Assembly (NCBI GenBank): GCA_965197925.1
Contig: CBDAOC010000020.1
Coordinates: 896,001 to 960,000, forward strand
Length of the DNA: 64,000 nt
Direction of reading: 5' to 3'
DNA from: Nitrososphaerales archaeon
Lineage (GTDB): Archaea > Thermoproteota > Nitrososphaeria > Nitrososphaerales > UBA213
Shown here: positions 43,932 through 60,507 of the stretch, piece by piece
How the letters are laid out: every line of letters starts with the position of its first letter
Numbering within the stretch: the stretch's first letter is position 1
Made by a program: the position numbers and the translations under genes
The notes under the pieces: model-generated
The model's input: only the letters and a program-made list of their open reading frames with translations
The model's database searches: none
Told to the model about the DNA's origin: nothing

Positions 43932-45299
43932 CTAAGTCACTATCACCCTACCGGTCATCCAAGGATGTAGTGTACAAACATAATCGAACGTTCCTCCCTT
44001 TTCAAATGTATAAGTAAAAATATCCCCAGGCTTCATAATTGCGGAGTCAAATATTTCATCTATGTTGGTTACCGTATGAACGGCTGAATCATCGTTGGTC
44101 CATGTTACAGTATCTCCTAAATTAACACGTATCTTTTCAGGTTCGAAAGTTATACGCAATGATGCCTTTGCCGAGTCAACCGGTGCCGAGACCATTGTGC
44201 TCTCAATTATGTCTGTCTTACCCTCTCCATTTTCACCCTCGTTGTAAACAGATTTTTTTGGCGTACTCACTTGCCCATCTGGATCTTCCGCCTGCAATTC
44301 CTTGAGCAGGTCTTCTTGCCAGCCTATCATACTGATGGACTTTGTTATAGATACATCCAATCCATCCATTGCATCTCCAGGCGCTTCTGTGACATCAAAG
44401 TAACCTAACGTTCCTTTCTCTTCAGGCGTTCCATGTATGTGGAAAAGATACCTGCCTTCCCATGGCCACGTTGCCTCAAAGATAGCAGTATCACCTGCTG
44501 ACACGGCATACGTCATTACCTTCAGAGGAGGATTTTGCCACAAACCAGCTGGCCATGCTTTGAAAGTCGTGCCATGTATATGAAATCCCCATGCAGGTGA
44601 GGCACTTATATTGGTGAAATAGATCCTAACGGTCTCATTCACTCTAGCAGGAAGTGGGTTGGACATATACTGGTCCACGTAACCATTGAGCATCACATAC
44701 TGGGGTGTCTCCGTCATCTGATCTTGTGTATCGTACTCTCCCATAACAAGCATGTACTCACGCGCCGCTTCCAACGGTGTCTTCGGATCGATTATGAATG
44801 CCCCATACATCCCGTTGCGTATATGCAGTGTTACTGGCATCACATGGCAATGGTACATCATTGCACCCGCAGGCGTTGCTATGAAATCATAAGTGAAGGT
44901 TTCATTAGGTAGAACTTCTTCGAAAACGCCATCGTTTATAGAATTATGATCACCGTGGAAGTGTATTGTATGTGTGGTTGTTGAGTTGTTTATGAAATGC
45001 GTTATAACACGATCGCCCTCAGTAACCCTTACAGTAGGTCCTGGTATCGTACCGTTATATGCCCATGCCAAAACCCGGACTCCAGGAGCTATCTCAACTG
45101 TAGTTTCCTTCATAACCATTGTATATTCATGTGTTTCAGGAGCGCTTGTTTGTATACCTTCGACTTCATTCCCCACAGAAAGAGGAGTTACATCGTTGGA
45201 ATAATTCAAAATACCTTGATTCACATTCAATAAAGTTATTCCAGTAATGGTAACTGCAGCGATTATAACAGCTAAGTACACTTGGGACTTTCTTATCAT
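43932..45299 (-). CDS. Two-domain multicopper oxidase fused to a C-terminal plastocyanin-like domain
   Basis: N-terminal anchor; HTIHFHG, YHCH..H....M, FHIHG, FHIH; C-terminal HTVT..YVCTLHPWM. Confidence 0.88.
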   Translation of the reverse strand: MIRKSQVYLAVIIAAVTITGITLLNVNQGILNYSNDVTPLSVGNEVEGIQTSAPETHEYTMVMKETTVEIAPGVRVLAWAYNGTIPGPTVRVTEGDRVITHFINNSTTTHTIHFHGDHNSINDGVFEEVLPNETFTYDFIATPAGAMMYHCHVMPVTLHIRNGMYGAFIIDPKTPLEAAREYMLVMGEYDTQDQMTETPQYVMLNGYVDQYMSNPLPARVNETVRIYFTNISASPAWGFHIHGTTFKAWPAGLWQNPPLKVMTYAVSAGDTAIFEATWPWEGRYLFHIHGTPEEKGTLGYFDVTEAPGDAMDGLDVSITKSISMIGWQEDLLKELQAEDPDGQVSTPKKSVYNEGENGEGKTDIIESTMVSAPVDSAKASLRITFEPEKIRVNLGDTVTWTNDDSAVHTVTNIDEIFDSAIMKPGDIFTYTFEKGGTFDYVCTLHPWMTGRVIVT

Positions 45300-47800: not shown

Positions 47801-49748
47801 TTAAGCTGGATTATCTAATGCTTGTATTGAATCTGGATTTTCTAAACTGGATAGGTCGCCCAGTTCAGTTTTCAATATCTTTGCTCTTATCAGCCTTCTA
47901 ACTATCTTTCCGGTTCTGGTTTTTGGTAGATCCCCAACGATCTTCACATCTTCTGGCTTTGAGATTTTTCCTATCCGATCTGCAACATATGTCTTCAATT
48001 CTTGTTTTATAGATTCATAAGAACTGCATTCTTGCTTAAGCACGATATAAAGAATAATGGCTTCGCCCTTTAGCTCATGCGGTATGCCTATAGCAACAGC
48101 TTCCAAAACTGCTGGATGTTGTGAAAGAACAGCTTCTATTTCTGCACTGCTTATCCTATGGCCAGCAACCTTGATAACATCATCTATCCTGCTATATAGA
48201 TACCACAAGCCGTCCGAATCGTTCACAGCCCAATCACCATGAAGCCAAACATCATCATACTTTGACCAATAGGTCTTGATATAACGATCTGGCTTACCCC
48301 ATAATCCCCGGGTCATTCCTGGCCATGGTTTCTTGATCACCAGATAGCCCGTTACTCCTCTCACAGATTTACCAGATTCATCAAATACGTCAACATCAAA
48401 ACCCGGAACTGGTCAGCCAACTGTGCTGGGCTTTAATGACAATATTGGTAAGGGGCTGAGTATTGCACCGTCCACTTCTGTTCCACCTGAAAGATTCATA
48501 ATTGGACATCTTGATTTTCCCACCTTTTCAAAGAACCAGTTCCATTCATCCGGATTTAAAAGTTCACCGGTTGATGCAAGGATCCTCAAAGTATCCAATC
48601 TATAATTTCTTAAAGATTTATCATACTTCATGAATAGACGAATAACTGTAGGAGATGCACCGAATATGGTAAACCTTATGATCATCAATCATACGAAACC
48701 ATCTATCTGGCTCTGGGTAATTAGGAGCTCCATCGTATACCAATGCAGTGCTTCCTAGTATAAGCGAACCATAAACCGTCCATGTCTGCCCCGTTATCCA
48801 ACCAATATCTGCAGGCCAAAAAAGTAGATCACTGTCTTTTAGATCAATAAGATAAGCTGTTTGCTGTGCAGCAAAAACTGTGAAACTTCCTTGAACATGC
48901 AATGTACCTTTCGGCTTTCCCGTTGTTCCTGAAGTGTAAAGAATAAAAAGTGGATCTTCAGAATCCATAATTTCACAACTACATTCGCTTGATTGTTCAT
49001 CAACAATTTTATCATGCCATAGATCTCTTCCATCAATCCATTTAATATCGTTCTTAGCATACCTGTACACGATAACCTTACTTACAGTCAGGCATGAAGC
49101 CAACGCTTCATCGGCACAATTCTTTAAATCTACTAGACATCCTCTTCTGTAGTAACCATCTGCGGTAATTAGCAACTTTGCCCCCGAATCGTTGAGCCTT
49201 CCAGCTAGAGAGGCAGCACTGAAACCAGAGAAAACTACACTATGTATTGCACCAATCTTTGAACATGCAAGTATGGATACCAAAGCTTCAGGAATCATAG
49301 GCATGTAAATTCCTACTACATCACCCTTACAAATGCCCAATATCTTTAGAGCATTAGCAAGTTTATTGGTCATAACATAAAGGTCAGAGTATGAAATTTC
49401 CCGTTTAAATCCATTCTCTCCTTCCCATATGTAGGCAAGTTTTTCTTTTCTCCATGTCTTCATGTGTCTGTCTAAGCAATTGTATACGATATTGCATTTT
49501 CCGTTAACGAACCACTTCGCCCACGGGTTACCATTTGAGGTATCAAGAACCCGCGAATATGGTTTGAACCAATCTATATTAAGATCTTTATTTACAGCAT
49601 CCCAATACCATTCTATGTTATCAGAAGATCTATTGATCAGTTCATCGTAACCCGTTATTGAATTCTTGTCCATAAATCGCTTGATGTTGCTCATATCTAC
49701 AGTCTCCTTGGAAGGTCTAAAGGCTATGCCGGAATGTTTGTGCGTCAC
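47801..49748 (-). pseudogene. Acetyl-CoA/acyl-CoA synthetase (AMP-forming), frameshift near 48670 and TGA at 48413-48415
   Basis: YTSGTTGKPKG, ADIGWITG, SGGTE, HGD, R.DDVIKVAGHRI, PKTRTGKI. Confidence 0.88.
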
Positions 49749-49978: not shown

Positions 49979-50473
49979 TTAGGTCTCCTTAGTTACCCTC
50001 GTTGCAACTATCTCTTTGCTTTCCTTATCCACCACTATATGCATCTTGATGAATCCCCTTACATACCACTTTTCCCTCAACAATTCTCCCTTGTTTGCTA
50101 CCTTTGTACCGGTGGAATCTACAGCTATTACAATAACATCCTCCTTCATAATTGATGGGTCTATCTTAACATCCATCTTCGCTACCCTCCATGCTATGCT
50201 TGTATAGTCAGGTGTATGCAAACCTCCAACATGTTTTGTTAATACCTTTGTGAATTCTTCTAACTGCCTGTATGGTAGCAGGTAAGCATGCACAACAGAA
50301 AGCATCACTAGGAATGATTCTGGATACACGAATGGCTTGCCTACTTTACCTTCATTCATTCTTGCAAGCTCATTAGGCCATGAATCTATGAAATCCATAT
50401 CAAGAAGTATCTCTCCCCTTCTTATAGCTGCCTTATTGTACCCTTTCCAGGTCATATCAGCCATAAATCTCAA
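49979..50473 (-). mobile_element. IS type E (IS5 family) truncated transposase
   Basis: W..YN.A.IRRGE, MNEGKVG.PF.YP, AVDSTG.KV. Confidence 0.8.
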
Positions 50474-50596: not shown

Positions 50597-50953
50597 ATGA
50601 AAAAGCCTACAGTTTATGGTCTGATTGTGGCTGTTTTGCTAGTTGCGGGTTCAGCTGGCTCAGTTTGGGCTCAGTATGGTGCAGGTTCAGGACAAATAGC
50701 AACACCGGAACAGGTTAAAGAATGCCAGCAACTGGGAATACCAGAGGTTACTTGCACGGAGACTAGTCTCCTTGCAAAGAGGAGAATGGTATCAGCAGGT
50801 CAGACAGGAGCATATGGTTCTGGTACGTCTATGATTAGTAAGACATTTGGCGAGATGGGTGTGGTCTTAGGAGCACTTGCTGCAATCTTTGGGGTAGTAG
50901 CGATCGTATTCTTTGCTAAAAGTAGAGTAGGAAAGGAAGCAGAAACAAAGTAA
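50597..50953 (+). CDS. amoZ: Probable ammonia monooxygenase accessory subunit AmoZ
   Basis: Signal peptide (VWA-Q), Cys pair CQQLGIPEVTC, C-terminal TM helix; linked to amoB. Confidence 0.7.
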   Translation: MKKPTVYGLIVAVLLVAGSAGSVWAQYGAGSGQIATPEQVKECQQLGIPEVTCTETSLLAKRRMVSAGQTGAYGSGTSMISKTFGEMGVVLGALAAIFGVVAIVFFAKSRVGKEAETK

Positions 50954-51058
50954 AACCTTCCTTACTTTTTGTTTTAAGAAATTTGTGTCTCCTATCATAT
51001 TCATAAGAATAAAGTATAAGAGATGCAGAAATGTATATATTCATGCAGGGGGAGCACT

Positions 51059-51337
51059 ATGTCAATGATTGGTATAATCGGGTTGGTTTCGTGGATTAGT
51101 TCCTCCTTAACAGACATGGCTGGACAGATAGGTCCTGTATACGATCCACTGTTCTATGATGTAATGGTGTACATATTTGGTACGATGGTTTTCGCGGTAT
51201 TCTTACTGGGCGTTATCTCATTCTGGTTAAGAAGAAAAGGGCTAGGCGGTACGGCAAAGGAGAAGTGGGTTGAGGAACTTGAGAAGCACTATGAAAGAGA
51301 AGGCGTCGGCCTTATACCAGAAGAGTCTAGGAAGTAA
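51059..51337 (+). CDS. amoY: Probable ammonia monooxygenase accessory subunit AmoY (alternative start 51116)
   Basis: Single TM helix then LRRKG.GG..K.KW.EE amphipathic tail; between amoZ and amoB. Confidence 0.65.
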   Translation: MSMIGIIGLVSWISSSLTDMAGQIGPVYDPLFYDVMVYIFGTMVFAVFLLGVISFWLRRKGLGGTAKEKWVEELEKHYEREGVGLIPEESRK

Positions 51338-51387
51338 GAAACGTCTACACTTTCTTTTTCTATTTTGCTTAAGATTTGCGTTACTAA

Positions 51388-52369
51388 GCCTTGTTGCATA
51401 ACTAACCGATTGTTCTACCAATCCAGCTTTAGATCATAACATTTTCTGTCATTTCATGAATTGGAAAACATAGAATTATTCACTAATAAGTAGAGGTGAG
51501 ATTATCATGTCATTTGACGTGATGGGTTCCCGGAAGACAGAACTAGATGGGATGAACAAGGGAAAGAAAGGAAGACAATACCAGAATCCTTCATGAAATT
51601 ACTGGGATATGCATGTGCATATATTGTATAGTCATACAGACAAACCCAAGGAATGGTACAGGCACATTGTTCCATGTGTATTCCCAGGGCACCAAACTGC
51701 ATCTCCATCAACAGTAGCATCAATAAACTAGACATCAACGTCAATCCAAATATAGGAAAGGATGTTGTCATTGCCATTGATTCTACAGGTATCATAGCTA
51801 ACCGTGGAGAGTAGATGAGACACAAATGGAAATCAAGGCGAGGATTTCTCAAGATACATGTGGACGTTGACATCAAAACCAAGAAGATAATATCATACAA
51901 AATTACCGATGAGCATTCTCATGATGCTCAACATCTTCCTTCTCTTGTGAAACAAGCTTCCAATAAGTTCCAGATTACAAAGGTGCTGGCGGACGGTGCA
52001 TATGATTCCATGAATAATTTCTCATGTCTATATCACAAGGGTATAATTCCAGCAATACGTGTGAGAAAGAATTCAACTGGTAAGGTAACAGGTTGTTATT
52101 CAAGAAAGATATCTTTGATATCGCAGCTGACCAATTACAATTACTGGAAGGATAGCGTAAGCTATGGGCACCGTTGGATTATGGAATCCGTGTTCTCATC
52201 ATTCAAGAGAATGTTTGGAGAACATGTTATGGCTCACAAGACAAAAAATATGATAAAAGAATTGGAACTGAAGATATCGCTGTATAACTTGTTTGTAAGT
52301 ATTTGAACAAGCAAAAAACAAAACAAGTTATTACAATCTCATCAAGACGAATTAGATATGCAACGAGGC
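51388..52369 (+). mobile_element. IS type E full-length degenerate element, 982 bp
   Basis: IRs GCCTTGTTGCATAACT / AGATATGCAACGAGGC; KIHV.VD, LADGAYD, RW..ESVFS.FKR.FG; stops in 5' half. Confidence 0.9.
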
Positions 52370-52446
52370 AGTTAACATTTCTTAACAATGTTTAGAACTC
52401 AACATTATCTTTACTTAAATTAAGGAAAAAAGGGTGTGTGGAATGT

Positions 52447-53004
52447 TTAGATCACTTGCCAGGGCCTTGTCACTAATGATACTCCTAGTCCTACTGCAAT
52501 GATTATAGATTGATATATTACATTACCAGTTGAAACAGGTTTCACTATTGGTTCTCCTGATACAACAACCGTTTGGCCAGGACCTAGACCTGGACCTATG
52601 TTCGCAACATTAAGTTGTGTATGCAGGTGATATAAACCCGGTTCAAGTGCTTTGACTCTCAATACGTAATCTATCTCGCCATTTGCAGGAATATCGAATA
52701 CGTTTCCAGGTGGGTCTCTTGAAATGAACTCCCATCTATTACCAGCATTGGTGGAATCACTGAATATAGAGAGCCAAGCCCTCGAATCTCTATTAATCAG
52801 ACTTACCAGCTTTCCTCTAACCTCTATTATCTCCCCAGTTTGAACCGTTTGAGCAGAGAAGGTCTCATCAGTGATCCTGATGAATCTACTCTGGAGTTGA
52901 GCCTGCACACCATGTCCCCACGCATTTTCTATTACTACTGTAGCAATGCTAAATACCAATACCACAGCAAGACTTGACATTATTACCGCCTTGCCTGTCT
53001 TCAT
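52447..53004 (-). CDS. amoB: Ammonia monooxygenase subunit B
   Basis: Signal peptide then HGVQAQLQSRF; NAGNRW, YHLHTQLNV, GPGLGPGQ. Confidence 0.97.
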   Translation of the reverse strand: MKTGKAVIMSSLAVVLVFSIATVVIENAWGHGVQAQLQSRFIRITDETFSAQTVQTGEIIEVRGKLVSLINRDSRAWLSIFSDSTNAGNRWEFISRDPPGNVFDIPANGEIDYVLRVKALEPGLYHLHTQLNVANIGPGLGPGQTVVVSGEPIVKPVSTGNVIYQSIIIAVGLGVSLVTRPWQVI

Positions 53005-53272
53005 TAATCCTTAAGCACAAGGTACAAAGATATATATTTTATCTTCATAAAATTTTTATTTATAACTCGATTAGAATAATTGTCTAATGTATAACTTCAA
53101 TGTTTATCATCGATGTTCATTTTTACAGTGTTGAAATTTAGCAGTTATTGGAACTAATTTATTCAAATTGCTTCTAATTAGTAGGTGTACTAATGAAATA
53201 AATCTATTTTTCATTAAAGATTTAAATGGTAACCCTATTATACCAGAAAGACGATTCTAAGTTTGAGTAAAT

Positions 53273-53836
53273 ATGGCACAAATGCCAGCATTAATTCCGA
53301 AAGAGGTAGAGATACAGAGACTGAAGAAAGTAATGATCATGATTATCGTTCTCGGATCCGTTGCTGCTTCGGTTGAAGTCGATAACTTCGTTGACGGTTC
53401 ATTACACCAAACTTCGATCAGAGATTCAGCATTCACACCAGCGCATTGGTGGCTCTACAGTCACTTTGTGGCTTTGCCATTGGGTTGGGGCGCTGTGATG
53501 ATATATGACCGGAGAATTCCATCACTACGCGGTCCAAACAATACAGTGAACACCGGTCTGAAGATAACCGTTATCGGTTACCTTGGAACTATGTTCACAA
53601 TCGGTATCAACGAGATGTGGCACTTTTGGTTTGTTGAGGAAATCTTTGCTGTGCCCAACCACTGGTCATTCAACATGGGTGTCGTTCTGGCATTCATGGG
53701 TGCATTGGGTTATGTGGTCAGAGTCTATGCTCGTATGATAGAGCTTGGTGTGGAAACACCACCGAGGAACCCATACGTAGCAGAGATGTACAAGATGGCT
53801 TTAGAGGGCAAACTTTACAGTAGAAGCATACCATAA
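53273..53836 (+). CDS. amoC: Ammonia monooxygenase subunit C
   Basis: MAQMPALIPKEVEIQRLK, EVDNFVDGSLHQTSIRDSAFTPAHWW, NEMWHFWFVEE. Confidence 0.98.
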   Translation: MAQMPALIPKEVEIQRLKKVMIMIIVLGSVAASVEVDNFVDGSLHQTSIRDSAFTPAHWWLYSHFVALPLGWGAVMIYDRRIPSLRGPNNTVNTGLKITVIGYLGTMFTIGINEMWHFWFVEEIFAVPNHWSFNMGVVLAFMGALGYVVRVYARMIELGVETPPRNPYVAEMYKMALEGKLYSRSIP

Positions 53837-53855
53837 GCGTGCTAGATAAAACCCC

Positions 53856-53882
53856 GTCCCCAAGTGGGACTCTTTTGTTTGT
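53856..53882 (+). terminator. Hairpin GTCCC-CAAGT-GGGAC plus T-rich tract after amoC
   Basis: Read directly. Confidence 0.55.
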
Positions 53883-54108
53883 TAAAGCCAACGTGAGTTA
53901 AGTTTGCTATTTTGGTTCAACAACATAATTCATGTTCGTAGGGTTGAATATTCAAGAATTTTAAGGTCTTATCATTTCTTGGCCCAAATTCTCTGGAATC
54001 TACTATAGTTTGAAAATACTCATGAATATATACATTCTAATATTAAACATATTTTTTTATGGAATCCCCACAGTAATATTTAAAAACCATTTGACTTGTA
54101 ATAGTCAT

Positions 54109-54366
54109 ATGTCTAGAGAAGCTCCAAGGGATGAAGTTGAAAGGATGATTGGAAAAAGAGTGGAGAACATGAAGGGGGTTTTCATAGTGGGATTCATATT
54201 GGCTTGGGCTGCGTTAGCAGTTGGTATTTATGTAGGAGTTACTTACTATCCATGGGCATATGCGTTCAAAAGTGGAATGTTTGCACTTGTTGTGCTGACA
54301 ATTATAGAGGCATTAGGATTCCTCTTCATCTGGAAGATAGCAATGGAGAAGCCAGTAAATCCTTAG
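54109..54366 (+). CDS. amoX: Ammonia monooxygenase subunit X
   Basis: 85 aa, two TM helices, between amoC and amoA; IGKRVENMKG, YYPWAY. Confidence 0.9.
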   Translation: MSREAPRDEVERMIGKRVENMKGVFIVGFILAWAALAVGIYVGVTYYPWAYAFKSGMFALVVLTIIEALGFLFIWKIAMEKPVNP

Positions 54367-54469
54367 ACGAAGAATTTTTTATCATAGAATTTCTTATTTT
54401 ATTAAAAATAGATCTAGAATATATTATTTTAGATGCCTTTAGTAATAGGCAATAAAGAGTCATAAAATC

Positions 54470-54477
54470 TTATATAA
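54470..54477 (+). promoter_or_regulatory. TATA box of amoA (TTATATAA), probably a leaderless transcript
   Basis: 24 nt before the ATG, with A-rich BRE-like bases upstream. Confidence 0.6.
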
Positions 54478-54501
54478 TGGTCTTCAGGCATTAGTTCTAA
54501 T

Positions 54502-55152
54502 ATGGTCTGGATGCGACGCTGTGTGCACTACCTATTCATAGTAGTGGTTGCAGTAAACTCAACACTACTGACTATAAATGCTGGTGACTACATATTCTAT
54601 ACAGACTGGGCATGGACATCCTTTGTTATATTCAATCTTTCTCAATCAACGATGCTCGCAGTAGGAGCGGTATACTACCTGACATTCACAGGGGTGCCAG
54701 GTACAGCGACGTATTATGCCACTATAATGACGATATATACTTGGGTTGCCAAAGGTGCTTGGTTAGCGTTAGGGTATCCATATGATTTCATAGTTACACC
54801 TGTTTGGATACCGAGTGCGATGTTGTTGGACCTTGTGTACTGGTCAACTAAGAAGAATAAACATGCAACAATACTGATAGGCGGTGTGCTGATAGGAATG
54901 ACAATGCCGCTCTTTAATATGATGAACTTGATTTTAGTAGCTGATCCCTTGGAAATGGCATTCAAGTACCCGAGACCTACACTGCCTCCGTACATGACGC
55001 CTATAGAACCCCAAGTAGGAAAGTTCTATAATAGTCCGGTGGCTCTTGGGGCGGGTATTAGTGCAGTATTATCGGTGCCTTTGGCTGCATTAGGGGCGAA
55101 GCTAACGACATGGACGTATAGATGGGCGGCTGCTTGGAGCAAGTGGGACTAA
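54502..55152 (+). CDS. amoA: Ammonia monooxygenase subunit A
   Basis: 216 aa; NSTLLTINAGDYIFYTDWAW, KYPRPTLPPYMTPIEPQVGKFY, WSKWD. Confidence 0.99.
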   Translation: MVWMRRCVHYLFIVVVAVNSTLLTINAGDYIFYTDWAWTSFVIFNLSQSTMLAVGAVYYLTFTGVPGTATYYATIMTIYTWVAKGAWLALGYPYDFIVTPVWIPSAMLLDLVYWSTKKNKHATILIGGVLIGMTMPLFNMMNLILVADPLEMAFKYPRPTLPPYMTPIEPQVGKFYNSPVALGAGISAVLSVPLAALGAKLTTWTYRWAAAWSKWD

Positions 55153-55220: not shown

Positions 55221-55244
55221 TAATCGATGTCCATTAATCGGGGT

Positions 55245-55427
55245 ATGAAGAAATTCTATCCTAAACCTCAAAGTTGTAATATATGTAATGCTAATTTGCT
55301 TGAGATGGAATCGGAAAACTTTTCTGTACTTGTAAAAGAAAATGAGAAATTGGTAGGTCATTCTCCAGTTTTAACCAAGTATGAATGTACTCAATGTGGG
55401 GATGAAATGGATCCTAAAGCACCCTGA
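55245..55427 (+). CDS. Small Zn-ribbon protein
   Basis: CNIC...CTQC. Confidence 0.6.
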   Translation: MKKFYPKPQSCNICNANLLEMESENFSVLVKENEKLVGHSPVLTKYECTQCGDEMDPKAP

Positions 55428-55494: not shown

Positions 55495-55698
55495 TTATCG
55501 GCTCTTAGTGGCTGAAACTACAATAAACACTGCTAGTCCTACACCAAGTCCTACCATCAGCGGCACAAAAGCCTTCAATGATTCACTCAAAAAGGCCTCC
55601 TGTCCCTTTAACTCCTGTCCGAAAGCACTTTCAAAGGCAAATGATACAATAACCAGCCCAAGCAAAGTCAACAACAAATTTCTCCGCAAGCCCTTCAT
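55495..55698 (-). CDS. Small membrane protein (signal peptide plus one TM helix)
   Basis: ..SAFG-Q cleavage-like site; C-terminal VPLMVGLGVGLAVFIVV. Confidence 0.65.
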   Translation of the reverse strand: MKGLRRNLLLTLLGLVIVSFAFESAFGQELKGQEAFLSESLKAFVPLMVGLGVGLAVFIVVSATKSR

Positions 55699-55849
55699 CG
55701 TATAGGTATCTGTAGAGGTATAATATAACTATGATGGTCTTAACGAAAACAGGTATACATCTGTAACCATTAGATGAGAGTTGCCATTTAAGCGAGAATA
55801 AAATTTATCTAGTTTAATTGTAGAGTAGTCACTCAATCAAATATTGATG

Positions 55850-55937
55850 AGCCTCGGGCGGGATTCGGACCCGCGACCTCTTCCTTACCAAGGAAGCGCT
55901 TTGACCATTAATTCTAGCCAGGCTGAGCTACCGAGGC
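55850..55937 (-). tRNA. tRNA-Thr(GGT) with 13-nt non-canonical D-arm intron (55901-55913)
   Basis: Cloverleaf after intron removal; anticodon arm CTTCC-TTGGTAA-GGAAG; BHB-like junction. Confidence 0.9.
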
Positions 55938-56365: not shown

Positions 56366-57019
56366 CGTTTAATGAGTCAACCCTATCGACTATTTCCAAA
56401 ACCATTCATTTTCTATTGTTAATGTTTGAGTATCAATCATGGTAGAATTTCTTACTCCAAATATGAGCAAAGAGCAGGGAGCACCTGCATGGAGAGGTTA
56501 AATAAGATCTTGAGGTTTACTGGACTTCCTGATAAGATTAAGAACTTGATTTACAGCCCTAGTTTAGAAGAAATCAATAAGACCAAAAAAGAAATCTATA
56601 TGAAATTACAGGGTTCATCCTAGTTAAACATGCCAAGATTTCAAATCAGCATAGGCATAAGAATAATCATGAAATCACCCTAAAGAAATGTGCATCATTT
56701 AATAATTAGGGTTAATATGCAGGCAAGAATTTTGCGAATGACATGCTCCCTATGTCATATTTTCATGCCCACATACTAACATCGGTTTGGTACTTCAAGA
56801 TTCCTATTTAGATAAGGTAATAAATCTCTTTTGATGTCCATTGGATGTACACTGCCATCTTCAATATGCTAGGTTAATATGTACAATAAGAAATTTCGTC
56901 CCTAATAGTTACACTATAATCATATCACACACATTCGATCAAATCTTCGATTACTGCTTTTTCATATCTAGAAAGTGTTGCAAGGCAAAGCTAAAATGGT
57001 TAAATGTTCATCTGTTCAT

Positions 57020-58000
57020 ATGCAAAAACCAAGATTGTATGTGACAAAGAATTTACCGAGAGCTGAAGAGATTCTTGAAAAATCTTGCAAGCTTACGGTA
57101 TATAGGGGAAGAGCTCCACTGAACAAGAAAGAGATAATCAAAAATATCATGGATAAGGAGGGTCTTCTTTGCTCCTTCTCAGATCCCATTGACGGCGAAG
57201 TTATAGGTTGTGCAGAGAAACTTAAGGTAATAAGTTCCTACAGTGTAGGATATGATCATATAGACATAGATGTTGCAACGAGGCAAGGTATATGCGTGAC
57301 CCATACACCAGAAGTTTTAACTGAAACCACAGCAGACCTGGCATTTGCTCTTCTGATTGCAGTTGCTAGGCGAATTGCGGAAAGTGATGCTTTTGTTAGA
57401 AAAGGAAGATGGCGTAGCGGTTGGAGGTATGATTTTATGTTGGGCAGTGATGTTTATGGAAAGACGTTGGGTATAGTCGGGTTAGGTAGAATAGGATCAG
57501 CAGTTGCAAACCGTGCTAATGGTTTTAATATGAAAGTACTTTATCACAACAGGCAAAAACTAGCTCTTAAAAGGGAGAAGGAATTAGCAGTTGAGTACAG
57601 ATCTCTAGATGATCTTCTGAAGGAGAGCGATTTTGTCAGCATTCACCTACCATTGACTAGTGATACTTTTCATCTATTGAATGAAAAGAAACTGAAACTA
57701 ATGAAACCAACTTCATATTTGATAAACACTGCAAGAGGTTCTGTGATAGATGAAAAAGCATTGGTTAAGGTCTTGAAACAGAAAGTGATAGCGGGTGCGG
57801 GATTAGATGTTTTCGAGAAAGAACCACTCTTAAGAAATCATAAATTATTGAAAATGAATAACATTGTTGTTGCCCCCCATATAGGGAGTGCAACTATAGA
57901 AACTAGAGAAAAGATGGCTGAGGTGGCGGCTTTTAACCTACTAAATGTACTAAATGGGATAAAGCCTCTTCACACTGTTAACCCAGAGACCATTTCTTAG
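57020..58000 (+). CDS. gyaR: Glyoxylate reductase / D-2-hydroxyacid dehydrogenase
   Basis: VGYDHID, TP.VLTETTAD, GLGRIG, INTARG, LDVFE.EP, PHIGSAT. Confidence 0.85.
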   Translation: MQKPRLYVTKNLPRAEEILEKSCKLTVYRGRAPLNKKEIIKNIMDKEGLLCSFSDPIDGEVIGCAEKLKVISSYSVGYDHIDIDVATRQGICVTHTPEVLTETTADLAFALLIAVARRIAESDAFVRKGRWRSGWRYDFMLGSDVYGKTLGIVGLGRIGSAVANRANGFNMKVLYHNRQKLALKREKELAVEYRSLDDLLKESDFVSIHLPLTSDTFHLLNEKKLKLMKPTSYLINTARGSVIDEKALVKVLKQKVIAGAGLDVFEKEPLLRNHKLLKMNNIVVAPHIGSATIETREKMAEVAAFNLLNVLNGIKPLHTVNPETIS

Positions 58001-58001
58001 T

Positions 58002-58439
58002 TTATCTATCTAATTGAATTACAGCCTTAGAACCATATTTTTTGAATATGCTATCATATCGTTCTACTCGTTCCTTTATTGGACTTCCAATTTCATCATA
58101 CATTTTTGTGAAAAATGCTGCAGTAAGTCTATCGCCTTTTGAGTCAATCAATCTTATGCTGTAGCTAATTCTGTCCTTCTTGTCTTCTCTGACGAATCTT
58201 ACTTCTTTAACTTCATTCTTGTCTATATGCATATGGCATGGACCACTGTTATCGCCAATTGTTATCCAGTTCTCTCTCACTTTAAAGGGAAGTTCATTAG
58301 TAATTCGCATCTCAATCACAACACCCCCCGTGTTCGCTGACATCAGTATATTTTCTTCATTGAGTATATCTCTTAACAAATTTTCGAGCATGCTAAGAAT
58401 CTCTGGCCGGGATCTTAAATAATATGCGGTTCGATTCAA
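58002..58439 (-). CDS. ChuX/HutX/HemS-like split-barrel protein
   Basis: GGVV.E, WITIG...HMHI, SYSI...D..G....FF. Confidence 0.6.
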   Translation of the reverse strand: MNRTAYYLRSRPEILSMLENLLRDILNEENILMSANTGGVVIEMRITNELPFKVRENWITIGDNSGPCHMHIDKNEVKEVRFVREDKKDRISYSIRLIDSKGDRLTAAFFTKMYDEIGSPIKERVERYDSIFKKYGSKAVIQLDR

Positions 58440-60033: not shown

Positions 60034-60507
60034 ATGGCAGTTGTGAATAAGCACAGTCCCTTTGGCATAGGAGTAATAGCCTTTTTGATAGCAGTTGGTG
60101 TTAGCATAGGGTTCTACCAGTTTGCTTACCTTCCTGTAATCACTGCCAAACCTCAGATTCCTGAAGATATACTTGAACCGAAAGAAACATCAGAAATTAG
60201 GATCATTTCAGGCTCTTTCAGTCCAGAACAAGATGACAGTTATATACCGAAACGAGTCGAACTTTATCTCGGTTTGAATAACAAAGTTGTGTGGATCAAC
60301 GAGGATGAAATAGGACACACTATAACTACAGACAACGATTCTGAAGACCAGTTTAGTGGACGGTTTGATTCCCTTGATATTATGGGGATCCTGAAACCAG
60401 GAGAGACCTACGAATTCCTATTCACTCAGGAAGGAGAGTTTCCATACCATTGTGAGCCACATCCCTGGATGAAGGGTGTAGTTAAGGTCATTAAACAAAA
60501 ATTCTAG
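60034..60507 (+). CDS. Membrane-anchored blue copper (plastocyanin-like) protein
   Basis: N-terminal TM; W.N.D..GHT.T, YHCEPHPWMKG. Confidence 0.9.
   Translation: MAVVNKHSPFGIGVIAFLIAVGVSIGFYQFAYLPVITAKPQIPEDILEPKETSEIRIISGSFSPEQDDSYIPKRVELYLGLNNKVVWINEDEIGHTITTDNDSEDQFSGRFDSLDIMGILKPGETYEFLFTQEGEFPYHCEPHPWMKGVVKVIKQKF

Follow-up and report, generated by a model that had tools for sequence, protein, structure and literature searches.

A predicted six-gene ammonia monooxygenase cluster carrying an insertion sequence, and a conserved microprotein gene beyond amoA, in a Nitrososphaerales archaeon

The window analyzed here is a 64,000-nucleotide stretch of a Nitrososphaerales genome (assembly GCA_965197925.1, contig CBDAOC010000020.1). 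With a probability of about 0.95, it encodes the six published subunits of archaeal ammonia monooxygenase (AMO), namely A, B, C, X, Y and Z, in a host that groups with Ca. Nitrosomirales and that would, by homology, oxidise ammonia. The six-gene finding as stated in an initial annotation of this DNA is already known and published. That annotation described the locus as contiguous, but a 982-bp IS5 element lies between amoY and amoB; the locus is the same six-gene cluster with an insertion (Table 1). The literature we found does not contain a membrane microprotein present across ammonia-oxidising archaea (AOA), the full gene order in five uncultured Nitrososphaeraceae loci, or the Nitrosomirales instance with an insertion sequence (IS).

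Table 1. Features of the amo locus and its right-hand border (positions in the window; ORF, open reading frame)
Feature	Position	Strand	Description
amoZ (AmoG)	50597-50953	+	118 aa; predicted signal peptide, Cx9C two-helix outer domain, GSGT motif, C-terminal membrane helix
amoY (AmoF)	51059-51337 (alternative start 51065)	+	one membrane helix, mixed-charge cytoplasmic tail
Decayed IS5-family insertion sequence	51388-52369	+	982 bp, between amoY and amoB, whose ends converge
amoB	52447-53004	-	signal peptide, cupredoxin domain with His31/His126/His128, C-terminal helix
amoC	53273-53836	+	PF04896, E 8e-15; D41/H45/H58 and N113/H117/H130
amoX (AmoD)	54109-54366	+	85 aa, two hydrophobic segments (membrane helices); between amoC and amoA
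amoA	54502-55152	+	PF12942, E 7e-111
Zinc-ribbon-like ORF	55227-55427	+	66 aa, between amoA and the microprotein gene; weak matches only
AOA-restricted membrane microprotein	55495-55698	-	67 codons; signal peptide, mature chain of about 40 aa, one helix, basic tail; converges on amoA

Identity of the six genes and placement of the host

The initial annotation had recognized amoA, amoB and amoC by their copper-ligand motifs and a two-helix amoX between amoC and amoA, and both readings were borne out. AmoA, AmoB (185 aa; PF04744, E 3e-8) and AmoC match the families of the archaeal AMO core and retain the putative ligand residues, those of AmoC being invariant across 15 aligned AmoC sequences. 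We take the histidine, aspartate and asparagine residues of AmoB and AmoC to be ligands of the CuB, CuC and CuD sites, following work on particulate methane monooxygenase and AMO. All six genes are single-copy in the 2.91-Mb genome, and, as read by eye, each is preceded by a TATA-like sequence and followed by a T-rich tract.

The two smallest genes also have the expected form. AmoZ has hydrophobic segments at residues 4-27 and 83-112, of which the former was taken as a signal peptide from hydropathy and an A-Q site (without SignalP), and Cys43 and Cys53 form the Cx9C pair. A structure model of modest confidence (mean predicted local distance difference test 68.7, predicted template modelling score 0.29) places helices at 37-46, 55-69 and 80-115. 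Predicted in this way, AmoZ has a two-helix outer domain with a lineage-restricted cysteine pair, presumably a disulfide, and a C-terminal helix, in agreement with the signal peptide, cysteine pair and C-terminal helix that the initial annotation had seen. AmoY has one hydrophobic segment (residues 30-58), within the usual form of one membrane helix in about 80-90 aa encoded downstream of amoZ. The single helix was read correctly, but the tail is mixed in charge where the initial annotation had it as basic: it holds 9 K/R against 8 D/E and is basic only directly past the helix.

AmoY and AmoZ were named by Hodgskiss et al. 2023 (PMC10030591), and homology to the published proteins (NVIE_004540/NCAV_0488 and NVIE_004550/NCAV_0486, respectively) was traced indirectly, through alignment members, peptides and readable model positions. 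Of the Nitrososphaera viennensis peptides in the cross-link table of that paper, one AmoY (NVIE_004540) motif occurs in 5 and a second in 2 of the 23 rows of the AmoY alignment, and an AmoZ (NVIE_004550) motif occurs in one of 26 AmoZ rows (L092). At the readable positions of the N. cavascurensis model, the homologues from locus L015 agree with chain F for AmoY, from Met1 to Arg85, and with chain G for AmoZ at six residues (Gln1, Cys22, Lys23, Cys32, Thr33 and Ala98). The AmoY members that match published peptides or model ends are 57-72% identical to AmoY of the window, and the L015 AmoZ homologue is 46% identical to its AmoZ. Two lineage traits given for AmoZ in PMC10030591 recur in the alignment: the cysteine pair in 12 of 26 rows, which are Nitrososphaera-titled or deep-branching, and a C-terminal zinc ribbon in 2 rows.

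The distribution of both proteins points the same way. In a profile search of 121 genomes across the phylum, amoA was matched in 16 and AmoY in the identical 16; AmoZ was matched in these 16, with one further weak match (E 6e-4, in a 435-aa frame). Among 41 relatives, neither AmoY nor AmoZ was matched in any of 25 searched relatives that lack amoB, and AmoY was matched in 13 of the 15 that bear it. In the samples searched, the two proteins are conserved in and exclusive to AOA. Pfam and NCBIfam hold no family for AmoZ, AmoY or AmoX, and a PDB sequence search gave chance-level matches for AmoZ and AmoY (E 0.04-0.8) and none for AmoA at E<=0.01. Protein-cluster look-ups returned "hypothetical protein" as the only name, save for three unrelated 394-aa members, which is how the initial annotation expected these genes to be labelled. 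Its proposal that the two ORFs are AmoY and AmoZ stood up, as homologues were found and they are restricted to AOA in these samples; judged by homology, the ORFs are the published subunits.

An unrelated membrane-anchored protein (G000:C19, approximately 266,150-266,350) carries two tandem copies of AmoZ's 17-residue Cx9C loop (ECxxLGIPExxCTExxIL) at its N-terminus. Since the loop is an insertion in only 12 of 26 AmoZ rows, it may be a mobile disulfide mini-module.

In a joined AmoA, AmoB and AmoY tree of 25 rows, the window falls with SAT137 and two loci from metagenome-assembled genomes (support 93/93), and the nearest named rows are Nitrosomirales. Ca. Nitrosomirales DSS1 and SAT137 are both among the five named loci whose AmoY is closest. 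SAT137 is listed as a reference Nitrosomirales genome by Zheng et al. 2024 (PMC10811736), where the same six genes as in the window (amoABC, X, Y and Z) are stated for Ca. Nitrosomirales; the main text of that paper contains neither "synten", "arrangement" nor "gene order", figures and supplements being outside the scope of this comparison.

Transcription was assessed from RNA contigs assembled in a single study, labelled sponge metagenome, with four runs; strand, ends and level are not readable from such contigs. Mismatch-free, gene-sized contigs were present for amoZ, amoB, amoX and amoA in all four runs and for amoY and amoC in three. Together with the TATA-like and T-rich flanks of each gene, these contigs hint that the amo genes are mostly separate transcripts.

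Some observations weigh against the assignment of locus and host. One genome that is 97% complete (G001) has no AmoY match, and its amoB contig stops just past amoB. The midpoint-rooted tree does not resolve the Nitrosomirales rows as a clade apart from Nitrosocaldus-type rows. The insertion breaks the contiguity of the cluster, which in its Nitrosocaldaceae form has no intervening gene, and the RNA comes from one study only, with promoters and terminators judged by eye.

By homology, the six subunits would form a copper membrane monooxygenase that produces hydroxylamine from ammonia at one of the copper sites, located in AmoC; activity and assembly in this organism are predictions. According to the text of a preprint on AMO of N. 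maritimus (10.64898/2026.08.31.748207), the enzyme has copper at CuB and CuD and eight chains per protomer; AmoX (there AmoD) supplies helices that the short archaeal AmoC lacks and completes its bundle, and AmoY (AmoF) and AmoZ (AmoG) clamp the protomers of the trimer. The other two are AmoE, a marine-only chain that has one helix together with a C-terminal domain, and AmoH, a loop-rich cytoplasmic chain modelled as poly-alanine and without an assigned gene. The window shares A, B and C with their copper-ligand residues as well as X, Y and Z, but its AmoX has two helices instead of three, and its amoY-amoB gap holds only the IS, with no homologue of AmoE or Nmar_1504 at that locus. The initial annotation spoke of all subunits being together; this holds for the six genes, but in view of the eight-chain preprint six may not be all.

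Gene order and the insertion sequence

The order Z, Y, B, C, X, A is that of NCAV_RS02360-02385 in the Nitrosocaldaceae, where the six genes are syntenic (PMC10030591, Table S16), and of five Nitrosomirales-type loci (L025-L029). Besides genes and order, the window shares with the Nitrosocaldaceae cluster the strands (compared with loci of the deep-branching family f8), the cysteine pair of AmoZ and a two-helix AmoX. It differs in its host, which groups with Nitrosomirales and is not in Table S16, in the IS between amoY and amoB, and in its AmoB, which lacks the insertion of the 209-aa Nitrosocaldus-type protein.

Gene order was surveyed in the best 80 of 264 AmoY loci, a sample biased toward the query in which many loci are ended by contig ends. 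Within it, the full arrangement Z+Y+B-C+X+A+ was found in 12 loci: five Nitrosomirales-type, five Nitrososphaeraceae-titled and two with intervening genes. A further 18 have Z+Y+B-X+A+. The five Nitrososphaeraceae-titled loci (L030, L035, L046, L051 and L087, all uncultured) have no gap above 607 bp. The amo genes of this family were described as scattered by Hodgskiss et al. (PMC10030591), and no later synteny study showing the intact six-gene order in it was found, passages of PMC10117904 included, with subscription papers, figures and some supplements outside the scope of the search. The initial annotation had likened the gathered subunits to deep-branching AOA; this is indeed the published order, but it is not confined to the deep branches. 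Another Nitrososphaeraceae locus (L102) is rearranged as A-, Y+, B-, C+, X+, Z-, with all six genes still together.

Additional or damaged copies were seen in relatives. In a Nitrosomirales locus (L007/L027) the amoZ beside amoY is frameshifted, and other amoZ copies lie elsewhere in that genome (G002), which also has a second archaeal-type amoB (66%; L017, G002:C22). Longer amoB-like frames of 293-389 aa and about 30% identity occur in three other genomes (L018, G007:C31; L019, G001:C100; L023, G036:C63).

Of the 1109 bp that separate amoY from amoB in the window, the IS occupies 982; the remaining gap would be 127 bp, and in five related loci, which lack the IS, it is 122-131 bp. The transposase matches NF033579 with 140.2 bits. 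As in other IS5-family elements, a DDE transposase is flanked by terminal inverted repeats of about 18 nt in an element of about 1 kb. Here the repeats (51388-51405 and 52352-52369) are 89% complementary; the element differs from the family in that its transposase is broken by stops and frameshifts at several places and its target duplication is degenerate or absent. We take its ends to be IS903-like.

It is very improbable that the IS is recent or was made by the assembly and disturbs amo expression. Its absence from relatives and the many IS5 fragments in this genome would fit such an origin, but the transposase has been broken repeatedly and the nearest copy in the genome is just 87% alike. 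The junction is also crossed by DNA contigs in three of four runs examined (X5, X9 and X16, from three studies; one strain about 96% alike), and thus the IS is no assembly artefact; among the matches listed, no DNA contig joins amoY directly to amoB without it. RNA contigs cover both amoY and amoB. The element landed between two converging gene ends, outside both T-rich, terminator-like tracts, and would likely be neutral because the amo genes appear to be transcribed mostly one by one; separate transcripts would explain why an insertion at this place is tolerated. None of the four RNA runs covers the IS or the zinc-ribbon ORF beyond amoA, although absence of cover is no evidence of silence. 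The IS fragment upstream of amoZ is covered by a 175-nt RNA contig with 2 mismatches in one run.

A conserved microprotein gene facing amoA

The initial annotation delimited the locus at 50597-55152, which covers the six genes but stops short of a conserved small membrane gene on the opposite strand (Table 1). Its product belongs to a family of single-helix membrane proteins with a signal peptide, a short outer loop, a helix with the motif PLxVGLxxG and a basic tail; mature chains have 33-41 aa, and leader-free forms exist in a streamlined family (f12) and in the Nitrososphaeraceae-type family (f15). In 17 of 19 genomes of the deep-branching families f1 and f8 the gene faces amoA at a distance of 109-469 bp, and in 12 of 15 f12 genomes the two genes are 3.7-11.4 kb apart; in f15 they are unlinked.

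An initial profile matched 7 of 8 f1, 11 of 11 f8, 24 of 24 f12 and 10 of 23 f15 genomes, compared with one weak match at E<=0.01 among 84 genomes from other families in the order. With a refined profile (cut-off E<=0.001), 69 of 71 f15 genomes were matched, all best E-values being <=6e-7, as were 16 of 121 phylum genomes, the very ones in which amoA was matched. Eight weaker matches in non-AOA genomes (E 0.0015-0.009) were put down to chance: they are partial, seven in frames of 132-778 aa and one across a stop. All 27 matches among 1.84 billion representatives look like one family. The ratio of nonsynonymous to synonymous differences (pN/pS) is 0.13 in 252 non-independent pairs of 63 cores, indicating purifying selection, and differences by codon position number 636/350/2580. 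TATA-like and T-rich flanks were present at all 12 loci inspected, and in the window the gene is covered by a 174-nt mismatch-free RNA contig in one of four runs. Judged by these sequence features, it is a real coding gene, conserved in ammonia oxidisers and, across the samples searched, confined to them.

The microprotein has no match in Pfam, NCBIfam or PDB, and atlas matches stayed below 0.9. No description was found in the literature, nor did the motif turn up in the nine supplement files of PMC12856327 that were searched for it; subscription papers, figures and some supplements lay outside that search. Several known proteins were considered and rejected. AmoH and AmoE, as described in the text of the preprint, are set apart from a protein of one helix without a domain that occurs in all four families. 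That it replaces the third helix found in Nitrosopumilus-type AmoX does not fit the description, the distribution or the likely opposite topology, and NVIE_013530, the highly expressed co-migrating protein of Table 2 of PMC10030591, has 271 aa.

Most likely, the microprotein would act as a small accessory subunit in an AOA-specific membrane complex, possibly AMO. In the bolder version, which we consider unlikely, a seventh gene belonged to the ancestral amo block, arrived with that block in the AOA ancestor and encodes an overlooked AMO subunit or assembly factor. Its helix, with the N-terminus out and the basic tail in, would pack on the AmoA/AmoC bundle; gene callers, trypsin proteomics and synteny screens would have missed it for its small size, and it would have moved from the cluster later in soil lineages, like amoY and amoZ. 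Like AmoY and AmoZ when they were named in PMC10030591, it is exclusive to AOA and syntenic in the deep branches, and the co-occurrence with amoA, the convergent position in f1 and f8, the proximity in f12, the low pN/pS, the uniform family and the RNA contig all agree with a part in AMO. Only 3 of 21 members yield a non-hydrophobic tryptic peptide of 7-25 residues, and therefore absence from blue native gel proteomics says little. Against such a part, the gene adjoins a ribosomal-protein gene, which we take to be rpl44e, in 29 of 30 f15 loci, where the listed long ORFs include no evident amo gene, and none of the five complete six-gene loci of Nitrososphaeraceae contains it. The probable N. 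viennensis gene, NVIE_024260 by position, has a log2 TPM (transcripts per million) of 8.2 and falls in another expression cluster, compared with 12.1-14.4 for amoA, amoB, amoC6 and amoX and 13.4-13.6 for amoY and amoZ, a comparison that rests on the positional match and may under-count short transcripts. Neither NVIE_024260 nor NCAV_0493 is in the proteomics file published with PMC10030591. The preprint text offers no obvious slot for the microprotein; its unassigned chain AmoH is loop-rich and cytoplasmic, and by our own count of 6+1+4+3+1+1+1 the 17 helices per protomer are filled. Gene order near amo is also kept without function, as rps15 abuts amoZ in many loci, and RNA cover was seen in just the one run. 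Finally, a Thaumarchaeota-specific module of 216 mostly unannotated families has been described (PMC9258230, as far as seen); with so many AOA-specific families, restriction alone is weak support for a role in AMO.

We lean somewhat towards the alternative that another AOA-specific membrane complex, such as the hydroxylamine-oxidising machinery, a respiratory complex or the ammonium transporter, has the microprotein as a small subunit or regulator, and that the place of its gene beside amoA reflects inherited gene order. Near-universal presence, restriction to AOA and purifying selection suit this, and the gene's own TATA-like and T-rich flanks and the decay of its linkage to amo with lineage argue for it. 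In size and charge pattern it presumably resembles small single-helix subunits of respiratory complexes. However, no match in Pfam, NCBIfam, PDB or the atlas names such a complex, and across f1, f8, f12 and f15 the gene is not consistently linked to any other candidate complex.

Flanking genes and implications

The zinc-ribbon ORF next to amoA is found in four of the five Nitrosomirales-type loci (L025-L029) but is not thought to be part of AMO. The right flank is conserved in close relatives and includes, besides this ORF, a tRNA-Leu(CAA) at 55849-55937 and genes for a 2-hydroxyacid dehydrogenase and a HutX/ChuX-like protein at 56975-58439. A plastocyanin-like protein is encoded downstream of the locus at 60034-60507. 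The flank upstream of amoZ has been rearranged, since relatives have rps15 or alba in that position. Here, an acetyl-CoA synthetase-like gene split over three frames, probably a pseudogene, is found on the minus strand at 47801-49748 and adjoins an IS5 fragment at 49979-50473. Also on the minus strand, 5.3 kb upstream of amoZ (43932-45299), is a gene for a two-domain multicopper protein with a C-terminal cupredoxin domain, similar to NirK and multicopper oxidases.

The same gene order in Nitrosomirales-type and Nitrososphaeraceae loci suggests that the ancestor of all AOA families already had the cluster, which was later broken up piecemeal, often with amoC leaving first; the intact Nitrososphaeraceae clusters soften the published statement that the amo genes of this family are scattered. 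Published compositions of archaeal AMO differ, with six chains in 2023 and eight in the text of the 2026 preprint, one of them without a gene. A near-universal, AOA-restricted microprotein whose gene faces amoA is of interest as a candidate, cheap to test directly, for a component of AMO or of some other part still missing from ammonia oxidation in archaea.

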